Shown in pieces: positions 1,759-55,812 of a stretch of 64,000 nucleotides of DNA. The stretch is from Verrucomicrobiota bacterium. Its GTDB lineage: Bacteria; Verrucomicrobiota; Verrucomicrobiia; Verrucomicrobiales; Verrucomicrobiaceae. A model generated the notes under the pieces. It did no database searches. It was not told the DNA's origin and worked only from the letters and a program-made list of their open reading frames with translations. Position numbers and translations under genes: made by a program. Position 1 is the first letter of the stretch. Every line of letters begins with the position of its first letter. The stretch is from positions 41,793 through 105,792 of the forward strand of contig JANYCZ010000049.1 in NCBI GenBank assembly GCA_025360015.1, written 5' to 3'.

Positions 1759-4700
1759 GTGATCCGCCCCCTCATCACTTTTCTTTTTGTCTCTTCCGCC
1801 TTCGCGGAGCCAGCGCCGCGTCCCATCCAATTCTCCAAGGAGATCCGGCCCATCCTGAGTGAGAACTGCTTTTTCTGCCACGGCCCGGATGAAAAGAAGC
1901 GCGAGGCGGGCCTGCGCCTGGATGAGGAAACCAGTGCCAAAAAGGACCATGACGGCACCATCGCCGTGGTGCCGGGACATCCCGAAAAGAGCGCGCTGCT
2001 GGAGCGCATTGTAACCAAGGACCCCGATGAGGTCATGCCGCCGCCGAAGCAGCACAAGACCATCTCCCCCGCGCAGATCACGCTCCTGACCGAATGGATC
2101 AAGCAGGGCGCGCCCTGGGGAAAACACTGGAGCTATGAGAAGGTCGTCAAACCGGCTGTGCCTGCGGGGACCGCGCAGCCAGTAGATGCATTCTTGATCC
2201 AGCGCCTCAAGCAGGAAGGGCTCAAGTATTCGCCGCAGGCCGATACCGCCACGCTGATCCGCCGTGTCGCGCTTGATCTGACCGGGCTGCCGCCCACTCT
2301 CGAAGAGTTGGAGGCATTGGCGAAGCAGCCCTATGACACAGTGGTAGAGCATTACCTAGCCAGTCCCGCCTACGGCGAGCACTGGGCACGGCAGTGGCTG
2401 GATCTCGCGCGCTATGCGGACAGCTCCGGCTATCCGAGCGACCAGCCACGCGAGATCTGGGCCTACCGCGACTGGGTGGTGCGCGCATTGAATACGAACA
2501 TGCCGTTTGACCAGTTCACCATCGAGCAAAACGCGGGCGATCTGCTGCCCAAGCCGACGGACGACCAGCTCATCGCCACCGCATTCCATCGCAACACGAT
2601 GACGCAAAATGAAGGCGGCACCGATGACGAAGAATTCCGCAACGCCGCCATCATCGACCGCGTAAACACCACCTTCGCCGTGTGGATGGGCACCACGATG
2701 GCCTGCGCGCAGTGCCACACGCACAAGTTTGATCCCATCACGATCAACGAGTACTTCCAGTTCTACGCCTTCCTCAATCAAAGCGCTGACAGCGACAAGA
2801 AAGACGAAGTGCCGCTGCACAGCTTTGACACACCGGAGCTGATCCAGCAGCGCGCGCAGTTGAAAAGGGAGATTGATGAGCTTGAGAAAAAATTCACAGC
2901 CCCTGCTCCGGCATGGCTCGCCGGGCTCGATGTGTGGGACCAGGGCTTTGCCCGTGATCTGGGCTGGCAGACACCCCAGCCCGCCAAAGTGACCACGCAG
3001 TCGAAACAAAACGCCACCATCGCCCCGGGCGGCACGGTTTCGATTCCCAAAAACAGCGATACGGACAGCTACACCGTCGAGCTGCCCGCCACGGGAGACA
3101 AGCTCAGCGCGCTGCGCCTTGAAACGATGCCCGCCGCCGGTTTCGGCAACTTCGTCATCACGGATGTGAAGGCGGAAGTCGTACCACCTGATGGGAAGCA
3201 GGCACCGCAGGCGCGCTATGTGCGCATCGAGCTGCCCGGGGAGAAGAAGATGCTCCAGCTTGCGGAGGTGCAGGTTTTCAACGGCAGTGAAAACATCGCG
3301 CCCGCCGGTGTCGCCACCCAAAGCAGCCTCTACACCAATGCTGCCGCCAAGCGCGCCATTGATGGCAACACCGAAGGCGATTACGCTAAAAGCAGCGTGG
3401 CCCACACCGCTGGCACTGACAACGATCCCTGGTGGGAGGTGGATTTAAAAGCGGCCAAATCGGTGGACCGCGTCGTCGTGTGGAATCGCACAGATGGTGG
3501 CGTGGGCCGTCGTCTCGATGGCTTCCGCGTCGTGCTGCTAGATGACAAACGCCAGACCGTGTGGAAGAGCGACCCGACTCCTGCGCCCGAGAAAGACAAG
3601 ACCTTTGCCATCAGCGGTCCAGTGGCTGTGAGCTTCACCACGGCGCTGGCGGATTTTGAGCAGGACGGTTTCACCGCCGCCTCCGTCTTGAAGCCGAAGA
3701 ACAAAAAGCAGCAGGGCTGGGCTGTCGCCGGTGCCACCGACAAGCCGCATACACTCACCCTGCTGGCCGCTTCGCCGGTGGTGATTCCCGCAGGTGCCAG
3801 ACTGCGCATCACGCTCACGCAAAACAGTGAGCACAAGCAGCACACACTCGGCAGCTTTCGCCTCAGCTACACGGGAGATGCGCGGGTGCAGCAGGTGACC
3901 AAGGTACCGCAGAATGTGGTGGCCGCACTCGCCCAGGCGAAGGACAAACGCACGCCCGCGCAGCAGCAGACCGTGGTGGAGTATTTCGTCCGTAATGTGG
4001 CCAAAGCATCCGCCACGGAACGCACGCGTCTTGCCGCCGCCAGCAAAGAACTCGCCGCCCTCAAGCCGGTCACCGTGCCGATCATGCGTGATCTCGAACC
4101 AAAGCAGCGCCGGGTCACGAAGATCCAACTGCGCGGCAACTGGCAGGCGCTGGGGGATGAAGTCAGCGAAGCCACGCCTGCGGTTTTCAATTCGCTGCCT
4201 GCCGATGCCCCGCGCAACCGCCTCACGATGGCCCGCTGGCTTGTCAGCCGTGACAATCCACTCACCGCACGCGTGACGGTGAACCGCCTGTGGGAGAGCA
4301 TTTTCGGCACCGGCATTGTGCGCAGCAGCGAGGAGTTCGGCAGCCAGGGAGATCTGCCATTTCATCCCGAGCTGCTCGACTGGCTCGCCGCCGAATTGAT
4401 GGACAGCGGCTGGGACATCAAGCACATGCTCAAGCTGCTGCTCACCAGCGCGGCGTATCAGCAGAGCACCAAGACCACGCCGGAACTCAATGAACGCGAT
4501 CCCGACAACCGCCTGCTAGCGCGCGGCCCGCGCTTCCGTCCTACCGGCGAGCTGCTGCGAGATCAGGCACTCGCCGTCAGCGGCCTGCTCAGCGCCAAAA
4601 TGTATGGTGCGCCCGTGCGCCCCATGACGCCGAATCTCGGCCTCACCACCGCCTTTGGCCGCAGCAATGACTGGACCGTGAGCACAGGGGAGGACGGACA

Positions 4701-5154
4701 CCGCCGCAGCCTTTACACCGAAGTGCGCCGCAACAGTCCCTACGCCAGCTTCACCACCTTCGACGCCGGCAACCGCGAAGTCTGCCTGATCCGCCGCAGC
4801 CGCACCAACACGCCGCTGCAGGCCTTCGTGACGCTGAATGATCCCGTCTTCATCGAGACGAATCAAGCCATGGCCCGCCGCCTCGTCACTGAGGCCAAAG
4901 CCACGCCCGAGCGCCTTGCCCTGCTCTTCAAACTCTGCCTCTCCCGCGCACCGAATGCGCATGAAGCATCCTCGCTGACGCAGCTCTACACCGAAACGCT
5001 CACCACCTACCGCGCCGACTCGGCGGATGCCACCAAGATGGCCACCGATCCCCTCGGCCCTGCGCCCAAAGACGCTGACGTCGCCGAACTCGCGGCGTGG
5101 ACGACCATCGCCAATGTGGTGATGAACTTGGATGAGTTTTTGATGCGGAGATGA
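1759..5154 (+). CDS. DUF1549/DUF1553 (PSCyt/PSD1) planctomycete cytochrome c-type protein with inserted F5/8 type C-like domain
   Basis: Signal peptide; two CxxCH motifs (CFFCH, CAQCH); YGEHWARQWLDLARYADS, NPLTARVTVNRLW, RSRTNTPLQA; central discoidin-like segment (AKRAIDGN, WWEVDL). Confidence 0.9.
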   Translation: MIRPLITFLFVSSAFAEPAPRPIQFSKEIRPILSENCFFCHGPDEKKREAGLRLDEETSAKKDHDGTIAVVPGHPEKSALLERIVTKDPDEVMPPPKQHKTISPAQITLLTEWIKQGAPWGKHWSYEKVVKPAVPAGTAQPVDAFLIQRLKQEGLKYSPQADTATLIRRVALDLTGLPPTLEELEALAKQPYDTVVEHYLASPAYGEHWARQWLDLARYADSSGYPSDQPREIWAYRDWVVRALNTNMPFDQFTIEQNAGDLLPKPTDDQLIATAFHRNTMTQNEGGTDDEEFRNAAIIDRVNTTFAVWMGTTMACAQCHTHKFDPITINEYFQFYAFLNQSADSDKKDEVPLHSFDTPELIQQRAQLKREIDELEKKFTAPAPAWLAGLDVWDQGFARDLGWQTPQPAKVTTQSKQNATIAPGGTVSIPKNSDTDSYTVELPATGDKLSALRLETMPAAGFGNFVITDVKAEVVPPDGKQAPQARYVRIELPGEKKMLQLAEVQVFNGSENIAPAGVATQSSLYTNAAAKRAIDGNTEGDYAKSSVAHTAGTDNDPWWEVDLKAAKSVDRVVVWNRTDGGVGRRLDGFRVVLLDDKRQTVWKSDPTPAPEKDKTFAISGPVAVSFTTALADFEQDGFTAASVLKPKNKKQQGWAVAGATDKPHTLTLLAASPVVIPAGARLRITLTQNSEHKQHTLGSFRLSYTGDARVQQVTKVPQNVVAALAQAKDKRTPAQQQTVVEYFVRNVAKASATERTRLAAASKELAALKPVTVPIMRDLEPKQRRVTKIQLRGNWQALGDEVSEATPAVFNSLPADAPRNRLTMARWLVSRDNPLTARVTVNRLWESIFGTGIVRSSEEFGSQGDLPFHPELLDWLAAELMDSGWDIKHMLKLLLTSAAYQQSTKTTPELNERDPDNRLLARGPRFRPTGELLRDQALAVSGLLSAKMYGAPVRPMTPNLGLTTAFGRSNDWTVSTGEDGHRRSLYTEVRRNSPYASFTTFDAGNREVCLIRRSRTNTPLQAFVTLNDPVFIETNQAMARRLVTEAKATPERLALLFKLCLSRAPNAHEASSLTQLYTETLTTYRADSADATKMATDPLGPAPKDADVAELAAWTTIANVVMNLDEFLMRR

Positions 5155-5208
5155 ATCGTCCGGCTAAATCGTCGATTGCTCTTTGTTTGCCAGAGACCAT
5201 GTTTTATT

Positions 5209-5427
5209 ATGACCATCGCACTCGAACAGATCCGGCAGATGCCAGTAGTGCAGCGCATTCAATTGGTGGAGGACATCTGGGACACAATGGTGGCTGAAGA
5301 TGTGGATTTTCCAATGAGCAGCGCACAGCTCACGGAACTGGACGCACGCCGTGCCGCAATGATGGCTGATCCATCCATTGGAATCCCATGGGCGGAAGCG
5401 AAAGCGCGACTCCTGGCTGGAAATTGA
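5209..5427 (+). CDS. Putative addiction module component (antitoxin, TIGR02574-like)
   Basis: 72 aa with RIQLVEDIWD, ELDARRAA and GIPWAEAKARL, directly upstream of a RelE/ParE-like frame. Confidence 0.8.
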   Translation: MTIALEQIRQMPVVQRIQLVEDIWDTMVAEDVDFPMSSAQLTELDARRAAMMADPSIGIPWAEAKARLLAGN

Positions 5428-5430
5428 GCC

Positions 5431-5733
5431 ATGAAGACATCGGTCCTCTCACCCTGCGCGTTAGGTGACGCTGATGATGCGCGGCGTTGGTATGAGAGCT
5501 GTGAGCCAGGCCTGGGCTCAGAGTTTGTTCGCGCTTTGGAGGAGTGCCTGTCCCGAATCGAGGCTGATCCCGAACTCTACCGAATCGTGCTGGCCCCGTA
5601 TCGCTAAGTGCTCATGCGCAGGTTCCCTTTTCAGATCATTTATGAAGTCCGTGAAGACTGTCTTTGGATCCTCGCGGTTTATCACGCGAAACGAGATTCA
5701 GCCCAGTTGCGCAAAAGGATGACCGGACCTTGA
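5431..5733 (+). pseudogene. RelE/ParE-family toxin interrupted by in-frame TAA
   Basis: Reads MKTSVLSPCALGDADDARRWYESCEPGLGSEFV...PYR*VLMRRFPFQIIYEV...ILAVYHAKRD. TAA at 5605-5607 (codon 59), frame continues to TGA at 5731-5733. Confidence 0.82.
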
Positions 5734-5749
5734 ACGTATCTTTCTGCAC

Positions 5750-7201
5750 ATGAACCCCATCACTCACGACACCCTTCAGCTCAAGACGCGCCGTCAGTTC
5801 CTCGGCAACGCGGGGCAGTTCAGCCTTGGGGCCATCGCCATGCAGGCGCTGCAGCAGAAGGCGGGAGCCAGTGCTGCGGCGGACAATCCGCTCGCGCCGA
5901 AGAAGTCGCAGTTTGCACCGAAGGCCAAGCGCGTGATCTACCTGCACATGTCGGGAGCGCCGCCGCATCTCGACCTGTTTGACTACAAACCGGAGCTGGT
6001 GAAGCGCAGCGGGCAGGACTGCCCTGACTCGATCCTCAAAGGCCGCCGCTTTGCCTTCACCACCGGGGTGCCAAAGCTCATGGGCACACCGCGTACCTTT
6101 GCGCGCTATGGCAAAGGCGGGATCACGATGAGCGATGCCTGCCCGAACTTCCACACCATCGCCGATGAGATGTGCATGATCCGCTCGATGAACACAGATC
6201 AGTTCAATCATGCGCCGGCGGAGCTGCTGCTCTTCACCGGGCATGCGCGGCAGGGGCGTCCCTCCATGGGTTCGTGGGCCACGTATGGACTCGGCACGGA
6301 GAATCAGGATCTTCCCGGCTTCGTCGCACTCATCTCCAGCGGCACGCAGCCCAGCGGCGGCCAGGGCTGCTGGGGCAGCGGCTTCATTCCCAGCGTGTAT
6401 CAGGGCGTGCAGTGCCGCAGCAAAGGCGATCCCGTTCTGTTTGTGAGCGATCCCGCCGGCATGAACCGCACCATGCGCCGCAAGACGCTGGATGCGCTGC
6501 AGGATCTCAATCAGCAGCAGGTCGCCGAATTTGGCCATCCCGAGACCGTCACACGCATCGCGCAATATGAACTCGCCTTTCGCATGCAGACCAGCGTGCC
6601 TGAGGTGATGGACATCTCGAAAGAGCCGAAAGAGGTCATTGAAGCCTATGGCGCGAAACCCGGGGAGGCGAGCTTTGCCAACAACTGCCTGCTCGCGCGG
6701 CGGCTCATTGAAAAGGGCGTGCGCTTTGTGAATCTCTTCGACTGGGGCTGGGACTTCCACGGTACCAGTGAAGGCAGCGGCATCACCACAGGCCTCACGA
6801 ACAAAATGGCCGCGACCGACAAGCCCGTGGCCGCGCTCATTAAAGACCTCAGACAGCGCGGCCTGTTGGACGACACCCTCGTCATCTGGGGCGGTGAATT
6901 TGGCCGCACCCCCTTCCGCGAAGGCCGCACCGCCGCCAGCCAGGTGCTCGGTCGCGATCACTACCCCGACTGCTTCTCACTCTTCATGGCCGGCGGTGGA
7001 GTGAAGGGCGGCTTTGAATACGGCAGCACGGACGAGCTCGGTTTCGGCGTCACTGAAAACAAAGTCCACGTGCACGACTTCCAAGCCACGGTGATGCACC
7101 TGCTCGGCTTTGATCACGAGCGTCTGACGTATCGTTTCCAAGGCCGCGACTATCGACTGACGGACATCCACGGGCATGTGGTGAAGGACCTACTGGCGTA
7201 G
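5750..7201 (+). CDS. DUF1501 domain protein (sulfatase-like), Tat-type signal
   Basis: TRRQFL N-terminus; [54 protein letters not shown]. Confidence 0.92.
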   Translation: MNPITHDTLQLKTRRQFLGNAGQFSLGAIAMQALQQKAGASAAADNPLAPKKSQFAPKAKRVIYLHMSGAPPHLDLFDYKPELVKRSGQDCPDSILKGRRFAFTTGVPKLMGTPRTFARYGKGGITMSDACPNFHTIADEMCMIRSMNTDQFNHAPAELLLFTGHARQGRPSMGSWATYGLGTENQDLPGFVALISSGTQPSGGQGCWGSGFIPSVYQGVQCRSKGDPVLFVSDPAGMNRTMRRKTLDALQDLNQQQVAEFGHPETVTRIAQYELAFRMQTSVPEVMDISKEPKEVIEAYGAKPGEASFANNCLLARRLIEKGVRFVNLFDWGWDFHGTSEGSGITTGLTNKMAATDKPVAALIKDLRQRGLLDDTLVIWGGEFGRTPFREGRTAASQVLGRDHYPDCFSLFMAGGGVKGGFEYGSTDELGFGVTENKVHVHDFQATVMHLLGFDHERLTYRFQGRDYRLTDIHGHVVKDLLA

Positions 7202-10200: not shown

Positions 10201-11446
10201 AGAGATCGCGGTCCGGGTAGCGGAGCTGCAGCTCGGTCTCGATGCGGCTGTACCACGTGTCACGCTCGGCAAGGCCATTGCCGATGAGCACGATGTGCTC
10301 GCCCTTGCTTGGCGGTGCCACGGCTTGCGGGCGTGCGGAGGTGGCGGCTGCGGGTTCCACACTCGGTTGATGCGGAGGCTTGGCTTCTTCGGGCTTTTTC
10401 GTGTCGGTCTTGACCGCTGCCTGTTTCGCTTTGTCATCCGGCGTCCCCATGGTCGGGCTGCGGCCGGTGGCAAAGTCGCCGGGCTTCAGATTGCGCTCCT
10501 TGAAGTAGGCCGAGTCTTTGATGAAGCCGAAGGCGGTGGGTTTGTAGGGGTCGATGAAAGCGACATCCGCCTTGGCTGCGACAGGCAGCTTCAGCAGGGA
10601 GTAGGCCGCATTGACGATGAGGCGGCGCAGATTCTCGTCCGTGAAGTCCAGCGAGGCACCCATGGTGGTGCAGAAGGAGCGACCCTTGGTGCTGCCGTCC
10701 GGGGCGGTGTATTCGTGCAGCCAGGCGATGGGCTGCATGGGCTCGTTTTTCGCGCCGGCCACGTTCTTGGATTTCGGATCGAGCGTCTCGGTGACGGCAC
10801 CGCGCAGCAGGATCGTTTCGTTTTCCGGCTTCACATCCGGCGCGCCATAGACATCCGTGGTGCAGAAGATCTCGCCGACACCGCGCAGGATTTCATTCTT
10901 GCCGTTGGCTTCCACGACCACACTGCGGGTGCCTTCCTTTTTGTGCGAGCCGTGGTGGCTGACCCATTTCTCCCCGAGGATTTTCAGGCCAAATTCGCCC
11001 CACTTGAAATCACCCGTTTTGGCATTGCCAGTGAAGGCATGCGTGGCGGTGCGGAAGCCGATCACCGGCTTGCCGGAGTTCAGAAATTTGGCGAAGTGCG
11101 CGAGGCTCTCGTCCGGGAGCTGGCGAAAGCGCGTACCGATGATGAGCAGGTCCGCATCATCCAGCATCTCGGTGCCGCGGATGTTCTTCTGGTTGTTGGG
11201 GTCGATGTAGCCCGCCTTTTCGTCTGTGGAGAACAGCACGATGCAGTTGAAGCCATGCTTCTTGGCCAGGATCTTCGCCAGCATGGGCATGCTCTCTTCC
11301 GTGTGATATTCCTCATCACCCGCCACGAGGACGATCTTTTTGCCGCCACCGGCACCACCCGGATTGGCGGAGATTTCGAGGTATTCCTGCGCGTGCGCAG
11401 ATGCGACCGAGCCAAGCAGGGCGAGGGTGAAAAGAAGATGCTTCAT
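7259..11446 (-). CDS. Multidomain exported protein: ThuA-like + SGNH/GDSL + PVC-type heme-binding sorbosone-dehydrogenase-like propeller + HEAT repeats + cytochrome c
   Basis: Start moved to MKHLLFTLALLG (signal peptide). KKIVLVAGDEEY (ThuA-like), IGNGLAER...GYNES (SGNH), NPMQMSFDNKGRLWV, NFRPVDLEFAPDGSLYVIDW, C-terminal CVTCH. Confidence 0.85.
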   Translation of the reverse strand: MKHLLFTLALLGSVASAHAQEYLEISANPGGAGGGKKIVLVAGDEEYHTEESMPMLAKILAKKHGFNCIVLFSTDEKAGYIDPNNQKNIRGTEMLDDADLLIIGTRFRQLPDESLAHFAKFLNSGKPVIGFRTATHAFTGNAKTGDFKWGEFGLKILGEKWVSHHGSHKKEGTRSVVVEANGKNEILRGVGEIFCTTDVYGAPDVKPENETILLRGAVTETLDPKSKNVAGAKNEPMQPIAWLHEYTAPDGSTKGRSFCTTMGASLDFTDENLRRLIVNAAYSLLKLPVAAKADVAFIDPYKPTAFGFIKDSAYFKERNLKPGDFATGRSPTMGTPDDKAKQAAVKTDTKKPEEAKPPHQPSVEPAAATSARPQAVAPPSKGEHIVLIGNGLAERDTWYSRIETELQLRYPDRDLFFRNMGHVGDTPGFRPHPSRASQWAFPGANKFHPDKSIHNGQGFYATPDQWLTHLQADTIVGFFGYNESFDGPSKVGNFEAELDAWVVHTLSKAYNGKAAPRVVLVSPIAYENQSAKRDLPKGDIENANLLLYASSIEKVAKKHGLTYIDLFTPTQELEAKGGEFFTTGGFIPTEKGYEEIGKLLATGLYGHASRESKADPKLVHEAVKEKDWFWNTDYNILNGVHAHGRRYNPYGPQNYPDEVQKSREMTALRDGLIHSVATGKTTDLKVDDSKTHALPPVPTNYVPSVKNGSETYLYGEDALKSLKVPEGYKVEMFASEKEFPNLANPMQMSFDNKGRLWVATMPTYPHYKPGDAMPDDKILIYEDTNNDGKADKEIIFADKLHLPIGIEFAPEGVYVTQEPNLMLIRDTNGDDHADSMEIVLGGFDTHDTHHAISAFAADPSGAFMMCEGVFLHSNIETPYGPVRCVDGGFFRYSPQRGMLERTIQMSIPNPWGFVFDQWGQDFLLHTSGTTMNWALPVEVKPTFGSKTPSTADLVPDGHKVRPTSGLEIVSSRHFPDEVQGDLIYCNAIGFLGIKQVKIEDSGTGWKTAHRQDLLVSTDGNFRPVDLEFAPDGSLYVIDWHNVLIGHMQHNARDPLRDHVHGRIYRITYPGRPLVKPVPVAGAPLATLFEDLKEPELRTRYRARRELNGRDVKEVLPAIKTWAAEQKDVHAKLEALWVTWGLNQADEGLLREMLASPDFHARAAAVRVLRYNTHRIADSVALLEKAAADEHGRVRLEAVVAASWLPNIPAAKNIVAIAAKLPQDDWNKAAIKTAADRLAGIAEIVKPEHPVIPPPAHLSDAAKKQFKLGQEIYFREGHCVTCHQPNGAGIDPAFPSIVNSPWVTTDRDRLIKIAMYGLMGPLKVGDKEYNGQVPMTPFGGMLKDEEIASVLTFVRNHFGNKAEPITAPEVKAVRDANPGRMMLYTTDELLKQHPMK

Positions 11447-12032: not shown

Positions 12033-13451
12033 ATGACAACCCCCGCCTTCCTCAATGTCTCCCGCCGCCAGTTCTTCCGGCAGTCCGGCCTGGGGCTGAG
12101 CTCGGTCGCGCTGGGGTCGATGCTCGCGCGTGATCTCCCGGCAGCAGCCGGAATAGCAGGGCCACGACCACACTTTGCGCCGAAGGCGAAGCACATTATC
12201 TACCTGCACATGATCGGCGCGCCTTCGCAGCTCGATCTCTTCGACTACAAGCCGCTGCTGCAGAAAATGGACGGCCAGACCTGCCCGGAGGAGCTGACGA
12301 AGGGCAAGCGCTTTGCCTTCATCGGCAGTGAGATGAAGCTGGCGGGCACCGAATTCAAATTCCAGCGCCATGGCCAGAGCGGCTTGGAGCTCAGCGAGCT
12401 GCTGCCGCATCTGGGCACTGTGGCGGATGACATCTGTGTGGTGAAGTCCCTGCACACCAACGAGATCAATCACGCCCCGGCCCAGATGTTTCTGCACACC
12501 GGCTTTGGCCAGGGCGGCCGCCCCAGCCTCGGCGCATGGGTCACCTACGGCCTCGGCACCGAGAACCGCGATCTGCCCGCCTACGTGGTGCTCCAGTCCG
12601 GCCCTCCTGGCGGCGCAGGCTCCACGCTCTGGAGCACCGGCTTCCTGCCCAGCGTGTACCAGGGCATCCCGTTTCGCGGCAGCGGCGAGCCGGTGCTCTT
12701 TCTCGGCAATCCGCCGGGACAGAGCACCACCGACCGCCGCCATGTGCTGGATGCAGTGAAAGCCCTCAATGAGCAGCAGCTCGACGTGGTGGGAGATCCC
12801 GAAATCGCCACGCGCATCAGCCAGTATGAAATGGCTTACCGCATGCAGACCAGCGTGCCGGAGCTGATGGACATCACCCACGAGAACAAGGCCACGCTGG
12901 ACATGTACAGCGCGCAGCCCGGCAAGGCCTCCTTTGCCAACAACTGCCTGCTCGCGCGCCGCCTGATCGAGCGCGGGGTGCGCATGGTGCAGCTGTTTGA
13001 TTCCGACTGGGACCACCACGGTGGCCTCAAGCAGCGCCTCACCGCCAAAGCCAAGGACGTGGACCAGCCCATGGCCGCGCTGGTGCGCGACCTCAAGCAA
13101 CGCGGCCTGCTCGATGAAACCCTCGTGATCTGGGGCGGCGAATTTGGCCGCACCCCGCTGCGCCAGGGCGCCAATCAGGATGGCACCAAGACCTCCCCCG
13201 GACGCGACCACCACAAAGACGCCTACACCATGTGGATGGCCGGCGGCGGCACCAAGCCCGGCACAGTCTATGGCAAGACCGACGACTTCGGTTTCAACAT
13301 CGCCGAAAACGGAGTCCACACCCACGACCTCAACGCCACCGTGCTGAACCTCCTCGGCCTCAACCACGAACGCCTCACCTTCCGCTATCAGGGCCGCGAC
13401 TTCCGACTGACGGACGTGCATGGGGAGCTGGTGCCGGGGATTTTGGGGTGA
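12033..13451 (+). CDS. DUF1501 domain protein (second paralog), Tat-type signal
   Basis: SRRQFF; [48 protein letters not shown]. Confidence 0.92.
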
Positions 13452-41641: not shown

Positions 41642-42316
41642 TTATTTTTTCGTGGACTTGGTTTTGTGAATCACGCCTGCCAGCAAGTCAGCCTCTTGAT
41701 CAAACACCTTCAATGCCTGCTCATACTGAGCGTCAGTAGTGAACTCGTTCCTGGCCACTCGTCCTACGGCCAGCGTGGCTATGATGGCTGAATGCGGTTT
41801 GCGCAAATCAAAGAGGTAGTGAGTGCGGAAAGCTCCCGTACCCGACCACTCCAAGGTCGCGACGTAGCCAAAGGCCACATCTCTGCCACTCACGAACTGG
41901 CCGCGATAAAGCTCAGGCTGGGCCGCGAAGAATGGCGAGAACCATTCCGAACCAGGCGCGGTTTCGATGGCGAGAAGAATGGTCCCAATGGTCTTGCCAA
42001 AACTTCCCTCCTCAGGATAAACGATCTGAATGACTTTGCGGCGTTCGACCGTGGCCAAGGTGGTGATGACCGGTGCCTTTTAACGAGCAATCCATGTGAG
42101 CGCCTTCTCTGTCGGCTCGAAAAATTGATCGTCAACGTAGGGCATTTGCAAATTCAGCAGCGCCAGCCGGAACTCCGTCGAAACTTTGGCGATCCAGTGG
42201 GGCCCCTTGCCCCATGAATAGAGATAGCAGTCTTTGGGAGCGCCGGTGCGAAGGTTGTCCTCCCCATTCACAATCGAGGTAATCGCTGCGAGCAAGACGA
42301 GGAAGAACGTACGCAT
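41642..42316 (-). pseudogene. Exported hypothetical protein split by a single in-frame TAA
   Basis: MRTFFLVLLAA...TWIAR*KAPVITTLATVERRK... The stop at 42080-42082 joins ORFs 42080..42358 and 41642..42058 in one frame. Confidence 0.7.
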
Positions 42317-44667: not shown

Positions 44668-46611
44668 CTACGCCTCAATTTCCGCTGCCTCAGTCTCCTT
44701 GCTGCCACGCTTCAGCATCACTGCCAGCAGCGCAATGTCCGCCGGATTCACACCTTGGGCTCTCGCGGCTTGGCCGAGGGTGGCGGGGCGGAGGGCGGTG
44801 AGTCGGTGTTTGGCTTCGGTTTTCAGGCCGGGGATGGCGTGGTAATCGAAGTCGGCGGGGATCATTTTCTCCTCCATGCGCGAGGTCTTGGCGACCGTGT
44901 CTTCCTGCCGGGTGATGTAGCCGGCGTATTTAACGTCGTTTTCGACGAGGCTCCAGACTTCGGGAGTGAACTGGGAGTAGATGTCGGCAGGGAGCTGAGA
45001 AGGGATGCTTTCGGGACGACGCAGCCATTTTTCCAGGGTGACGCCGTCCAACCGGGCCTCCTGCAGGAGGATGCGAGCAGCGGCGAGGGCGGTGGATTTG
45101 CCCTCGGTATGACGGATACGGAAAGGGGAGGCGAGGCCGATGGCGGCGGCGAGAGGCGTGAGACGGAGGTCGCAGTTGTCCTGACGGAGGAGGAGGCGGT
45201 ACTCAGCGCGCGAGGTGAAGAGCCGGTAGGGCTCGGTGGTGCCTTTGGTGACGAGGTCGTCGATCATTACGGCCAGGTAAGCCTGGCTCCGCTGGAGCAA
45301 GAAAGGGGGACGACCTTGGGCTTTAAGCGCGGCATTGACCCCGGCGATGAGACCTTGTCCGGCTGCCTCCTCGTAGCCGGAGGTGCCATTGATCTGACCA
45401 GCGAAATAGAGACCGGAAATGCGCTTGGTTTCCAAGGTCGGGTGGAGTTGGGTGGGGGGGCAATAATCATACTCCACCGCGTAACCGGGGCGCACGATCT
45501 CGGCCTTTTCGAGGCCCGGGATGGAGCGGATGAAGTCATACTGGACCTCGAAGGGCAGGGAGGTGGAGACACCATTCACGTAGAATTCGCGGGTGTGGCG
45601 GCCCTCCGGTTCGAGGAAGATCTGGTGCCGTTCCTTGTCCGCAAAGCGCACCACCTTGTCTTCCACCGAGGGGCAGTAGCGCGGCCCGACCCCCTCGATC
45701 CGGCCGGAATACATGGCTGACTTGTGGATATTGGCCCGGATGATGTCGTGCGTTTGGGGGGTCGTGTAGGTGATCCAGCAGGGATTTTGTTCCACGTGGA
45801 ACTTTTCCGGGGTCCAGGAGTTCAGGGTGAACTGGTTAGGACCGGTGCCAGGAAGAGTGTTCGAGCCCTCGATTGGGACCTCCCGGTCGTCCTCCGGAAG
45901 GGTGCCGGAGAGGTAGCTGAACTGCGGAGCTGGCTCATCCCCTGGCTGAATTTCGCACTTGGAGAAGTCGATGCTGCGGCTGTTGAGGCGGCAGGGGGTG
46001 CCGGTCTTGAAGCGCTGGACGTCGAAGCCGAGCTCGCGAAGGCTGTCGGAAAGGGTGGAAATGCTATCCCCCATGCGCCCGCCAGCCTGGTTCTGCTGCC
46101 CCACATGGAGCAGTCCGCGCATGAAAGTGCCGGAGGAAATGATCACCGTCTTGGCGCGGTAGATCATCCCGAGGCTGGTGCGGATGCCGGTAATGGCGTC
46201 GTTTTCCACCAAGATCTCGGCGGCATTGCCCTGATGGAGGTCGAGGTTGGGCTGGTTTTCGATCAGCCATTTCATGCGAAACTGGTAGGCCTTCTTGTCG
46301 CACTGCGCCCGCGGAGCCTGCACACTGGGCCCCTTGCGGGCATTCAGCATGCGAAACTGGATGCCCGTGGCGTCCGTGTTCCGGCCCATGACCCCGCCGA
46401 GAGCATCGATCTCGCGCACCACATGCCCCTTGGCCAAGCCCCCAATGGCCGGATTACACGACATCTGGGAGATGGTATCAAGGTTCTGGGTGAGGATCGC
46501 CGTCTGGCAACCCATCCTCGCAGCCGCCATCGCCGCCTCCACCCCGGCATGACCGGCTCCGCAAACGATGACGTCATAGTGCTTGGGGAAGGTGTAGAGG
46601 CTCGTAGACAT
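44668..46611 (-). CDS. mnmG: tRNA uridine-5-carboxymethylaminomethyl(34) synthesis enzyme
   Basis: [44 protein letters not shown]. Confidence 0.98.
45788..45803. promoter_or_regulatory. parS-like site inside mnmG
   Basis: TGTTCCACGTGGAACT, 15/16 match to TGTTCCACGTGGAACA. Confidence 0.75.
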
Positions 46612-46643
46612 GGGGACGGCGAGAGTAGCACGAGGCAACGAAT

Positions 46644-46659
46644 TGTTCCATGTGGAACA
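46644..46659. promoter_or_regulatory. parS-like site upstream of mnmG
   Basis: TGTTCCATGTGGAACA; the dyad extends by one more T/A pair. Confidence 0.75.
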
Positions 46660-47124
46660 AAACGGAATCGCAGACAGCCCGCCGGGGAAGGGGAAATGTC
46701 CCGCCCAGCGCGTCCCAACCCTCCGCAGAAGCGAAGGGTCAAGCCAGACGGGCATGAGCAAGAATCACTTTCGCTGGCCCATCGCGGAGCAACTGATCAG
46801 GCGGTGGGATCGTGGAATGGAGGGTAAAAAAGGGGAGGTTGGGGAGCCTCTCGGACGAACTAAGCTTCCAGATTCCGGCTAAAGGCCGTACTACAAAACG
46901 TACGCTGGCTGGTTTCAGATCTGGAATGATGCGGGGGGCCTCCAGAACGGATACGATCCAGAACTACGTACTCAGAAGGGCCGGGAGAGTAATTTGGGAG
47001 AGCCGGAGATGCAGAGGTAGCAGAAGGAATTCGGAATTACTCTGCGTTAAAGCGAACGTCCCTATGGCTCGCCATACACGAGTGGAGTTTTGCTGACGTC
47101 CAAAACGCCTTGGGCTCCGACGAC

Positions 47125-47151
47125 GGCTGGCTGAGGACAGCCAGCCCTACC
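47125..47151 (-). repeat. GTAG-type REP palindrome
   Basis: Minus strand GGTAG-GGCTGGCTG-tcct-CAGCCAGCC. Confidence 0.6.
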
Positions 47152-47321
47152 TCGAGCGGCGTGCGCGACTGCTTGTTGCATCCCAATTCACCAGACGGTC
47201 AACGCATCCCGCCAACACACCTACCTTTCAATCACCTGGCCAAGGGACCCCATATGTCCCGTCTGCCAGTGTAATACCCCGCTTGCTTCCGCCCCTCATC
47301 CAGCTAGTATCGCCCTACCTC

Positions 47322-48407
47322 ATGGCCACCGCAAAAGCCCCCTCAAACGCCCTGGCGAAACACGCCTCCGACCCCATCAATCAAAAGCTCACTGCTGCCG
47401 ACAAGGTGAGGCTTTACCGTGAGATGGTCCGCATCCGCTGCTTCGAGCAGGTGTCCCTCCAGCATTACCAAGCCGGCAAAATGGGCGGCTTCCTCCACCT
47501 CTACATCGGCCAGGAATCCGTGGCCGTGGGCACCGTTTCGGTGATGGGTGAAAACGATCACGTCATCACCGCTTATCGCGATCACGCTCACGCTTTGGCC
47601 GTGGGCATGGGCATGAACGAGTGCATGGCCGAACTCTTTGGCAAGGCCACCGGTTGCTCCCGCGGCAAGGGCGGTTCGATGCACTACTTCGCTCCGGAGA
47701 AAAACTACTGGGGCGGTCACGGCATCGTGGCCGGTCAGACCCCGCTGGGTCTCGGCCTCGCCTACGGCCTGAAATATCGCGGCCTCAAAGGTGCCGCGCT
47801 CTGCTTCCTCGGCGATGGCGCGGTGAACCAAGGCGCCTTCCATGAGTCCCTGAACCTCGCGGAACTCTGGGATCTGCCGGTGATCTACGTCATCGAAAAC
47901 AACGGCTACTCCATGGGCACCAGCCAGCAACGCTCGTCCGCCTACACCGACTTCCTCGCCAAGCGCGCCGAAGGTTACGGCATGGCTTGGGAGCAGTTCA
48001 ACGGTGCCGACATCTATGAAGTCCGCGCCGGAGTCAGCAAGGCCATCGAGCGCGCTCACACTCTCTCAAAGCCAAGCATCATCGAAATCGCCACCTACCG
48101 CTGGGAAGGCCATTCCGTTGCCGACGCCAACAAGTTCAAGTATCGCACCAAGGAAGAAGTCGAGAAGTTCCAAAGCGAGCACGACCCGATTCAAGTCTGG
48201 AAGCGCAATCTCCTCGAAGAAGGTGTCGCCACCGAAGAGGAGCTGAAAAAGATCGGCAAGGAAGCCCAGAAGGAAGCCGAAGACTCCGCCGAATTTGCCA
48301 AGGTCAGTCCTTATCCAGAACCCGAATCCATCTTCGAAGATGTGTACTGGGAAGTGGACAACAAGACCGAAGCCGGCCAGACCGGACGGCACTTCTTCAA
48401 CGACTAA
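47322..48407 (+). CDS. pdhA: Pyruvate dehydrogenase E1 alpha subunit
   Basis: GFLHLYIGQE, CSRGKGGSMH, GDGAVNQG...ENNGYSMGT, TYRWEGHS. Confidence 0.95.
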   Translation: MATAKAPSNALAKHASDPINQKLTAADKVRLYREMVRIRCFEQVSLQHYQAGKMGGFLHLYIGQESVAVGTVSVMGENDHVITAYRDHAHALAVGMGMNECMAELFGKATGCSRGKGGSMHYFAPEKNYWGGHGIVAGQTPLGLGLAYGLKYRGLKGAALCFLGDGAVNQGAFHESLNLAELWDLPVIYVIENNGYSMGTSQQRSSAYTDFLAKRAEGYGMAWEQFNGADIYEVRAGVSKAIERAHTLSKPSIIEIATYRWEGHSVADANKFKYRTKEEVEKFQSEHDPIQVWKRNLLEEGVATEEELKKIGKEAQKEAEDSAEFAKVSPYPEPESIFEDVYWEVDNKTEAGQTGRHFFND

Positions 48408-49257: not shown

Positions 49258-50382
49258 ATGCCGCCGCCAAAAAAAACCGCTGCCAGCCAGGTCAATGTCT
49301 TCATTGGCAGCGATGAAGCGCGCGTGAAGGAAGCCGCGCTCATCCTCGTGCGCACCCTCACGCCACCCGACGCCGGAGACTTTAGCAACGACATCATCGA
49401 CGGCACCGCCGACAACTCCGAGCACGCTGGTACCATCTGCTCAAACGTCTGCATGGCGCTGCAAACACTGCCTTTCTTCGGCGGCACGAAAGTCGTGTGG
49501 CTCAAGAACGCCAACTTCCTCGGCGACTCCGGTGCCGGCAAAGGGCAGGCGGCGGTGGGCGGATTCGAGCGCATCCTCGATGTGATCGAAGGCGGTCTCG
49601 GCAGCGATGTGAGCTTCGTCATCAGCGCCACCGGCATCGACAAACGCCGCAACACTTACAAGCGCATCTCGAAGATCGCCGCCTTCGAAGTCTTCGACAA
49701 GCCCGACACCTCGCGCTCCGGATGGGAGGGCCCAGTGCTCGCCATGGCCTCACGCAAGGCCAAGGAACTCGGCATCACCTTTGAAAGCGGTGCCCTGGAG
49801 CTGCTCGTGCAGATGGCCGGCGATGACACGCGGCAGATGGAGAACGAGCTCGAAAAGATCGACCTCTACCTCGGCGAGCGCCGCCGTGCCGGACTCAAGA
49901 CCGTGCAGCACCTCGTCTCCATGAGCCGCGCTGGCGTGCTGTGGGATCTCGGCAACGCCATCGGCAAACGCGATCTGCCTCGCGCTTTGGAGCTGCTCGG
50001 CACGCTCATGTATCAGGGGCAAAACGCCATCGGCCTGCTGCTCGCCGCCATCGTCCCGCGCGTGCGCAGCCTGCTCCTCATCAAGGACCTCGGCTCGCGC
50101 CACAAGCTCAACAAGTTCAACTACGCCGGCTTCTGCTCCTCGCTTGAGGGCCTGCCCTCCACGGCCACCTCGCATCTGCCGCGCAAAAAAGACGGCACCG
50201 GCTTCAACGCCTACCCCATGTTTCTCGCCATTCCCGAGACCGGCAATTTCTCCCTGGAAGAACTCCACGCCGGATTCAAAGCCTGCCTCGTCGCGAATTC
50301 CAAACTCGTCACTTCCTCGCTCGATTCCAAGCTCGTGCTTGAGCGTCTGCTCGTCGGCCTGCTTGCCAGACAATCCCGCTGA
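49258..50382 (+). CDS. holA: DNA polymerase III delta subunit
   Basis: LQTLPFFGGTKVVWLK, ENELEKIDLY, WDLGNAIGKRD. Confidence 0.9.
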   Translation: MPPPKKTAASQVNVFIGSDEARVKEAALILVRTLTPPDAGDFSNDIIDGTADNSEHAGTICSNVCMALQTLPFFGGTKVVWLKNANFLGDSGAGKGQAAVGGFERILDVIEGGLGSDVSFVISATGIDKRRNTYKRISKIAAFEVFDKPDTSRSGWEGPVLAMASRKAKELGITFESGALELLVQMAGDDTRQMENELEKIDLYLGERRRAGLKTVQHLVSMSRAGVLWDLGNAIGKRDLPRALELLGTLMYQGQNAIGLLLAAIVPRVRSLLLIKDLGSRHKLNKFNYAGFCSSLEGLPSTATSHLPRKKDGTGFNAYPMFLAIPETGNFSLEELHAGFKACLVANSKLVTSSLDSKLVLERLLVGLLARQSR

Positions 50383-52205: not shown

Positions 52206-52622
52206 TCAGTCAAGCCAGTTCTCAACCTGCAGCTCCGGCACTTTGGAAAAGTCCACCAAGTTACGCGTGAGCAAAAGCGCGGCGTGAGATCGTGCGATGC
52301 CAGCAATCTTTAAATCCATCGTCCCCGCCCGCAGGCCACGCAATCGCTGAAACTCATCGGCGGCCTCGTCGTCAAACGGCAGAATGGTGATGTCGGCAAA
52401 ATCGTGGATCGCATTCTGAAACTGCCCGTACGCATGCACCTGCTCAGGCCCTGCTGTCTTGCGATTGATCTCCGCTGCCCAGCCCTGCGTAATTTCCTGC
52501 ACGGTCACCACCGTGATGAAGGCGTCCGCCACTGAGTCCATCAGCCGTTGTCTGAGCCGCTGGCCCGCCTCTGACTCATGCAAGAATTCACGATAATGAT
52601 TCGTGTCGAGGATGACGAACAT
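52206..52622 (-). CDS. VapC/PIN-domain toxin
   Basis: ILDTNH, TVVTVQEI, ILPFD, GTMDLKIA, LLTRNLVDF. Confidence 0.9.
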   Translation of the reverse strand: MFVILDTNHYREFLHESEAGQRLRQRLMDSVADAFITVVTVQEITQGWAAEINRKTAGPEQVHAYGQFQNAIHDFADITILPFDDEAADEFQRLRGLRAGTMDLKIAGIARSHAALLLTRNLVDFSKVPELQVENWLD

Positions 52623-52624
52623 GC

Positions 52625-52813
52625 TCAACGCCCTTCACGATTCATACGGTCCCGCCACTCGGCCCCGAGCTGATAGGCATCTGGGGAAAGATCATCATTT
52701 CTGGCCCTGCCAAAAAGTTTCATCCATGATCCTTTCGGCTTCGGGATATAACGCGGCTTCGGCTGCGTGGCAGCGTCAGCAACTTTGGTCACGCTTTCAG
52801 TGCGACTTGTCAT
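52625..52813 (-). CDS. Putative antitoxin (62 aa)
   Basis: MTSRTESV...WMKLFGRARNDDLSPDAYQLGAEWRDRMNREGR, abutting the PIN gene. Confidence 0.7.
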   Translation of the reverse strand: MTSRTESVTKVADAATQPKPRYIPKPKGSWMKLFGRARNDDLSPDAYQLGAEWRDRMNREGR

Positions 52814-55736: not shown

Positions 55737-55812
55737 GGTGGCCGTAGTTCAACGGTAGAGCCCCAGATTGTGATTCTGGTTGTTGCGGGTTCGAGTCCCG
55801 TCGGTCACCCCA
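55737..55812 (+). tRNA. tRNA-His (GTG)
   Basis: G-1 plus acceptor stem GTGGCCG/CGGTCAC, C73, encoded CCA; anticodon arm ccaga-ttGTGat-tctgg; T-loop GTTCGAG. Confidence 0.97.

Follow-up and report, generated by a model that had tools for sequence, protein, structure and literature searches.

Why should the gene for a tRNA-modifying enzyme carry two palindromic 16-mers, one ahead of its start codon and one translated as part of the protein? The question is raised by mnmG (gidA) of a Prosthecobacter-like Verrucomicrobiota bacterium (family Verrucomicrobiaceae), in a stretch of 64,000 nt from contig JANYCZ010000049.1 (assembly GCA_025360015.1, forward strand, positions 41,793 to 105,792) that is referred to below as the window. 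Judged by their sequence, the two 16-mers are very probably chromosomal parS sites, one of them translated within a loop of MnmG, where selection on the DNA would set both the peptide and the synonymous positions. parS is the palindrome at which ParB dimers load, from where they spread or slide over nearby DNA; the resulting partition complex is segregated by ParA and recruits SMC.

The internal 16-mer (TGTTCCACGTGGAACT on the plus strand, AGTTCCACGTGGAACA on the minus strand) and the upstream 16-mer (TGTTCCATGTGGAACA, ending 32 nt 5′ of the mnmG ATG) each differ at one position from the perfect palindrome TGTTCCACGTGGAACA, and in the whole window they are its sole matches at ≤3 mismatches. 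Both are found exactly where an earlier reading of the letters alone (the sequence-only reading) had placed them, including the 32 nt spacing to the ATG, and the match to parS that it had claimed is borne out. The sites are present far beyond chance: at ≤1 mismatch to TGTTCCACGTGGAACA there are two in the window and none in 100 dinucleotide-preserving shuffles. Both fit the 16 bp palindrome pattern tGTTNCACGTGNAACa, and in many species the orthologous sites are perfect palindromes. On the coding strand, the internal site spans bases 2–3 of codon K270 (A-G), codons F271 to E274 (TTC, CAC, GTG and GAA) and the first two bases of Q275 (CA-A), so that the protein reads K270 followed by FHVEQ. The same 16 bp palindrome, in few clustered copies, is typical of chromosomal parS/ParB systems of the TGTTNCACGTGNAACA type, as in Bacillus subtilis, Pseudomonas aeruginosa (parS1-4) and Caulobacter. 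The GTTCCAC/GTGGAAC arms of the mnmG sites are those of P. aeruginosa parS1-4, which are bound by ParB in vivo in chromatin immunoprecipitation sequencing (ChIP-seq), and the half-site variant GTTCCAT, present in the upstream site of the window, is likewise enriched in P. aeruginosa ParB ChIP-seq (PMC5961200).

Conservation of both sites spans a whole bacterial order. Among GTDB species representatives, 80 related loci were obtained, from Prosthecobacter, Brevifollis, Luteolibacter, Akkermansiaceae and unnamed Verrucomicrobiales, with MnmG identities of 63–96%; the closest orthologues to the window (96% identity) are from Prosthecobacter and Verrucomicrobiaceae metagenome-assembled genomes (MAGs). 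A parS-like site is found 5′ of mnmG in 80/80 loci, and the internal site, as NGTTCCACGTGGAACA, in 79/80. In these loci and the window, the upstream site lies 15–215 nt from the mnmG start, except in one locus where the distance is ~590 nt, and it is retained in the 24 loci where the upstream neighbour differs from the E1 dehydrogenase gene that flanks mnmG in the window. It forms an island of conservation (1.85 bit/position, against 0.13–0.29 bit in the flanks), although the sites were found by pattern and conservation within them is therefore partly by construction; the evidence lies in the match in every locus, against a chance expectation of ~1e-4 per locus. Most species carry just these two sites within ~14 kb.

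Departures from this arrangement are few. In two loci (L066 and L067) the internal peptide is FHMEQ, reflecting a CACATG variant that is typical of the upstream sites. The Akkermansiaceae loci carry further parS sites around mnmG and the flanking neighbour glmM, such as L074 with five in 3.7 kb (positions 155, 199, 1699, 2836 and 3720), and L077, an Akkermansiaceae MAG, with sites at 2924, 4381 and 7717. L077 is the sole locus without the internal site. A second parS-like palindrome elsewhere within mnmG was seen in two loci (GGTTCCACGTGGAACG at position 4547 of L073, and AGTTCCACGTGGAACT at position 7592 of L068).

Codon choice was compared in an alignment of 80 orthologues (the window and 79 loci), at the 323 columns where the amino acid is ≥95% conserved and its codons are degenerate. 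Only five columns use a single codon in ≥98% of species, and these are the five consecutive parS codons: F271 (TTC, 80/80), H272 (CAC, 79/80), V273 (GTG, 78/78), E274 (GAA, 80/80) and Q275 (CAA, 79/80). The runner-up column stands at 97%. At the other conserved columns, leaving out those of the site, GAA accounts for ~42% of glutamate codons and CAA for ~20% of glutamine codons, so the frozen codons are not simply the preferred ones. The amino acid at codon 270 is variable (K, T, M, L, S, E or A), and its third base, which belongs to the site, is G in 80/80. In L077 the corresponding peptide is FQVKQ, showing that MnmG tolerates H-to-Q and E-to-K at these positions. Given this exception and the synonymous freeze over five codons, the conserved thing is the DNA site and not the peptide FHVEQ, and purifying selection acts on the DNA motif itself. 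Suppressed synonymous variation at FHVEQ had been named beforehand as a check by the sequence-only reading, and over 80 species the five codons that make up the site, and no others, have lost such variation. Its broader proposal, dual-coding DNA in a tolerated loop, has likewise held up: it agrees with the codon freeze, the invariant G of codon 270, the FQVKQ of L077 and the three-frame arrays of Kiritimatiellia described below.

The gene itself is MnmG/GidA, with an FAD-binding GIDA domain, C-terminal helical domains and full-length similarity to solved structures. The product matches Pfam GIDA (PF01134, E = 4.6e-166, split into two stretches) together with SAM_GIDA_C and GIDA_C_1st (the Pfam entries PF21680 and PF13932), and carries the GAGHAG dinucleotide-binding motif. 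MnmG entries in the PDB match at E = 1e-199 to 1e-168, with 2ZXH, 3CES and 3CP2 at 1e-199 to 1e-191. Against E. coli MnmG (3CES/3CP2), residues 236–271 stand opposite just four residues, and the alignment picks up again at HVEQNPCW versus HPQQVPCY, where the H and Q of FHVEQ have counterparts in HPQQ. The insertion is thus real, and FHVEQ forms its C-terminal junction with the canonical fold. The sequence-only reading was right that a segment of about 35 aa is extra relative to canonical MnmG; its picture is refined in that FHVEQ sits at the junction of loop and core, not in mid-insertion. Among orthologues the segment from FS(Y/F) to FHVEQ varies between 29 and 94 aa. In an AlphaFold2 model (mean predicted local distance difference test score, pLDDT, 69; predicted template modelling score 0.74), residues 223–275 have pLDDT <50 and confident structure resumes at strand 279–282, consistent with residues 223–275 being a flexible surface loop. 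The features of the locus are collected in Table 1.

Table 1. Features at the mnmG locus, in window coordinates.
Feature	Position	Strand	Evidence
Internal parS-like site	45788-45803		Pattern scan; shuffles; 79/80 related species with NGTTCCACGTGGAACA; codon freeze
Upstream parS-like site TGTTCCATGTGGAACA	46644-46659		Pattern scan; shuffles; kept in 80/80 related loci
mnmG (gidA), tRNA uridine-5-carboxymethylaminomethyl synthesis enzyme, 647 aa	44668-46611	-	Pfam and PDB matches
Lineage-specific MnmG insertion loop, residues 236-270 (LSGTLPEDD...WTPEK), internal parS at its end	45802-45906	-	Structure alignment; orthologue length variation; AlphaFold2
Divergent intergenic region, 671 bp, between mnmG (-) and the E1 dehydrogenase gene (+), holding the upstream parS	46612-47282		Gene calls
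E1 dehydrogenase gene, divergent from mnmG	47283-48407	+	
holA, beyond the E1 dehydrogenase gene	49258-50382		

Long MnmG loops in eight loci (L007, L013, L016, L025, L031, L036, L048 and L060) contain in-frame inverted repeats ~700–950 nt into the gene. These are tandem heptamers (GAATGAC...GTCATTC, GGAATGC...GCATTCC, GAGAAGT...ACTTCTC and GCATGGA...TCCATGC) that encode peptides such as NDECRMTNDE...IRHSSFVIRHSS; the loop of the window has no counterpart of them. A specific tie between the hairpin repeats and parS was considered and rejected, as long hairpins are present throughout the loci and their enrichment near parS (within 250 bp) is just ~2.2-fold.

The association extends to other lineages, including Kiritimatiellia, where the loop holds between one and six sites, mostly perfect. 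Depending on the frame, the palindrome is translated as FHVE(Q/H), CSTWN or VPRGT. A whole-library HMMER search, reduced to 150 MnmG cluster representatives at 50% identity, yielded 46 parS-encoded pentapeptides in 23 representatives, and none in the reversed sequences; in 14 of the 23 they are in the MnmG loop, in up to five copies. Among the best 120 relatives of one such representative (P0210), every sequence has between one and six of these pentapeptides. Both loop anchors were found in 118 of the 120, and in these all 428 copies (428/428) are within the loop and none outside. The loop, measured from KTGTP to CW.T, is 51–200 aa long in these relatives (44 aa in E. coli and 76 aa in the window), and longer loops tend to hold more copies (r = 0.63). 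In the Kiritimatiellia arrays the leading copy is, with few exceptions, FHVEH, 29 residues past KTGTP.

The arrays differ in size and reading frame. In L083 there are six sites in 420 bp (positions 10812-11233; four perfect, one canonical TGTTTCACGTGAAACA and one with one mismatch), read as FHVEH and then as the VPRGT type, and L085 has three sites in mnmG that are read in the same way; the gene order is mnmG-dnaA-dnaN in both, and no sites were found outside mnmG in the 22 kb scanned. L090 carries six perfect sites in 312 bp (1162-1489), read as FHVEQ, also with mnmG-dnaA-dnaN. L089 (mnmG-dnaA) has four perfect sites in 170 bp (1884-2068) that use all three frames (MFHVEH, CSTWN twice and VPRGT). 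Like L083, L089 and L090 have all their sites within mnmG and no other in the DNA scanned, up to 22 kb. L088 has four sites in mnmG, read as CSTWN, and L087 (dnaN-mnmE-mnmG) has one perfect site in the loop, read as FHVEQ, and another three nt past the stop codon. The open reading frame (ORF) remains open and in frame through all of the arrays, so they are translated. Perfect 16-mers with three readings in a single gene (L089) show that the motif is conserved regardless of frame or peptide. The sites of L083 are spaced 93–96 bp apart, and Tandem Repeats Finder reports a period of 96 at 83% identity, and the build of the arrays from tandem units suggests that they expand and contract by unequal recombination or slippage.

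The lineage is indicated by the L085 contig: at 90% identity, its DnaA and UvrB cluster with proteins that, where named, carry the label Kiritimatiellae or Kiritimatiellia. The DnaA proteins of L083 and L085 share 96% identity. In the Kiritimatiellia loci, mnmG with its parS sites is directly upstream of dnaA, and of dnaN where the contig extends that far. In Verrucomicrobiales, mnmG is separated from dnaA-dnaN.

Read directly from the sequence, TGTTCCACGTGGAACA is free of stop codons in every reading frame and, being a palindrome, on both strands, while the canonical TGTTTCACGTGAAACA has a TGA in one frame; the single canonical copy of L083 sits in a frame without a stop. For this reason, the CC/GG variant of parS may be suited to sites and arrays embedded in coding DNA. 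Putative parS sites are associated with mnmG well beyond Verrucomicrobiota. A more far-reaching proposal is possible, although we hold it somewhat short of probable: that throughout Verrucomicrobiota (in Verrucomicrobiales, in Kiritimatiellia and in one or more further lineages) the disordered MnmG loop is the main centromere cassette, a translated parS site or array that expands and contracts by tandem duplication, uses the stop-free CC/GG variant and anchors the partition complex to a gene that is hard to lose. In Prosthecobacter-like genomes, the mnmG pair would then be where ParB mainly, perhaps exclusively, loads, despite the move of mnmG away from dnaA.

Among the cluster representatives, parS-encoded peptides were also seen at MnmG residues 2–6 (P0135, P0137, P0158 and P0243), where the ORF has probably been called through an upstream parS, and near the 3′ end (VSRET at residue 615 in P0229 and P0253; residues 524–541 in P0165, P0158 and P0251). 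The representatives with such N-terminal or 3′-end peptides belong to other lineages, at 45–51% identity.

From the identity of both sites to experimentally defined parS, ParB is their putative binder, and the pair would act as a centromere and SMC-loading site. One site lies in the leader or promoter region of mnmG. The other falls within the coding sequence, where a disordered surface loop of variable length reaches its C-terminal end. The enzyme would accept almost any sequence in this loop, and with such tolerance selection on the DNA site could dictate the peptide FHVEQ together with every synonymous position. Occupancy by ParB may also modulate transcription of mnmG, again on the strength of the parS identity.

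Several observations weigh against this reading. The outermost base of the internal site varies between species, leaving a fixed core of only 14–15 bp, and the upstream site has a mismatch in its centre (CACATG) that may affect ParB affinity. The window is without an origin signature: dnaA and dnaN are absent, and DnaA boxes are not enriched (seven against 4.9 expected) and do not cluster. Neither parA nor parB was found by Pfam scans of the larger ORFs in the window. A search with a regular expression for ParB motifs was negative for the window and for the flanks, up to 6 kb long, of the 80 loci. For the Kiritimatiellia loci, the precomputed Pfam matches of the genes called up to 10 kb from mnmG include no ParB family.

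The Pfam scans of the larger ORFs also gave no rsmG, mnmE, dnaA or dnaN, and tblastn of the window gave no dnaA, dnaN or mnmE. In the window and 80/80 Verrucomicrobiales loci, mnmG is not beside rsmG, parAB, dnaA or dnaN. There is no cluster of DnaA boxes in the intergenic region between mnmG and the E1 dehydrogenase gene, and a scan of the mnmG upstream region for sigma-70-like promoters gave no match. The GC skew of the window appears to follow gene orientation (coding strands are C-rich), and is uninformative as to the origin. None of this contradicts the further suggestions of the sequence-only reading, that the window is probably near the origin and that ParB may influence mnmG expression. 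In favour of ParB as the binder, ParABS homologues, and clustered parS at the origin defined by Hi-C, have been reported for each of the 12 genomes in a consortium of which the verrucomicrobium Akkermansia muciniphila is a member (PMC10197239).

That no parB was found in the window or in the flanks searched in the 80 loci would also suit a reading of the sites as operators for a protein other than the canonical segregation ParB, such as a Noc- or KorB-type ParB paralogue or an unrelated helix-turn-helix regulator, mainly controlling the expression of mnmG and, in Kiritimatiellia, of dnaA. A site 15–215 nt 5′ of the mnmG start in every species would suit an operator, as would the presence of only two sites per ~14 kb in most species and per 64 kb in the window. 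However, ParB sites defined by experiment have the identical sequence, the spacing to the ATG varies as it would not in a typical operator, up to six tandem copies beside dnaA-dnaN look like centromere clusters, and further copies are found next to unrelated genes (in Akkermansiaceae, for example, glmM). We regard control of this kind as unlikely, and parS as the better description of the sites.

A constraint on the mRNA, in which the palindrome forms a hairpin that affects translation, stability or pausing on mnmG, also predicts synonymous constraint, and in every loop sequence folded the 16-mer does give a stem of 5–6 bp with a 4 nt loop. Compensatory changes would then be expected, but none were found in 80 species; the same exact sequence occurs at variable distance in the non-coding DNA upstream and in three-frame tandem arrays, and it equals a known DNA-binding site. 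The hairpin was rejected on these grounds as highly improbable.

The loop might instead simply take up palindromes and repeats, the parS copies among them being selfish or neutral passengers. In many relatives of Prosthecobacter the long loops are indeed made up of inverted repeats that stay in frame and form hairpins, members of these repeat types are also found in the intergenic DNA upstream of mnmG, long hairpins are scattered through the loci, and the Kiritimatiellia arrays have tandem units of 93–96 bp. The hairpin inserts are variable and patchy, whereas the parS core is invariant in 79/80 loci over at least 37% protein divergence; neutral passengers would decay, but the Kiritimatiellia copies are mostly perfect 16-mers. 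Core invariance over this divergence led to rejection of neutral palindromic passengers, for which we see very little chance. That FHVEQ is kept for the function of the protein, with the likeness to parS a by-product, is hardly credible, even with H and Q aligned to E. coli HPQQ, E-Q to KEQ of Aquifex and the motif adjoining the conserved PCW strand: a protein cannot freeze synonymous positions, the five site codons are monomorphic in contrast to the variation at the 318 other conserved codons, codon 270 changes its amino acid but never its third base, most other MnmG representatives have an unrelated pentapeptide at the aligned position, and with FQVKQ in L077, CSTWN or VPRGT read from the same DNA elsewhere and an identical motif in the non-coding DNA upstream, constraint at the protein level is excluded.

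Both parS centromeres and intragenic parS are known, and what is unusual here is a position fixed in one protein loop over very long evolutionary distances. Intragenic parS sites occur inside spo0J (parB) of B. subtilis, and there are many in Streptomyces and Pseudomonas; as in these, the DNA within mnmG would code twice, for protein and for a site bound by ParB. To our knowledge, an order-wide synonymous freeze, the reuse of one protein loop by several lineages, or tandem parS arrays in three frames have not been reported, and the literature searched gave no account of parS conserved in this loop of MnmG, nor of parS arrays that are translated. Intragenic parS half-sites have been found in P. 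aeruginosa (PMC5961200). The chromosomal parS systems resemble the Kiritimatiellia arrangement in having sites beside dnaA-dnaN; they differ in that the mnmG site or array is held as translated sequence in one enzyme loop across an order or class, that parAB is not adjacent to it, and that its binding by ParB is predicted.

A second likeness is to the origin neighbourhood of gidA, a classic origin-region gene linked with elements of replication and segregation; E. coli oriC lies beside it. P. aeruginosa has a gidAB-parAB operon, and its oriCII overlaps gidA (PMC13438810). The gene orders mnmG-dnaA-dnaN in Kiritimatiellia and dnaN-mnmE-mnmG in L087 recall this neighbourhood. In the window, by contrast, the cis-element is inside the ORF and not beside it, and mnmG stands apart from rsmG, parAB, dnaA and dnaN.

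Two independent Logan assemblies of the same organism (L081 and L082) both break exactly 540 nt before the mnmG start, near window position 47150; this shared break within the mnmG/E1 dehydrogenase intergenic region hints at a repeat or at strain heterogeneity. Public runs containing the locus are from rock, sediment and other environmental metagenomes, given as DNA or as unknown in kind, with no run labelled RNA. Elsewhere, the window carries gene pairs of the Planctomycetes–Verrucomicrobia–Chlamydiae (PVC) type, PSCyt1/PSCyt2/PSD1 with DUF1501 (1759-7201 and 12033-13451), together with a PIN-domain protein (52206-52628) and tRNA-His(GTG) (55738-55812).

The mnmG locus offers a natural example of selection at the DNA level overriding the choice of codons and amino acids. 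It also warns that what looks like an 'insertion' in a conserved enzyme may be a cis-acting DNA element and not a feature of the protein. For PVC genomes and MAGs that have been little studied, FHVEQ, CSTWN or VPRGT in MnmG can serve as an in silico marker of the centromere and probably of the origin region, and the locus provides a system for studying how ParB loading and sliding proceed alongside transcription and translation of the same DNA.

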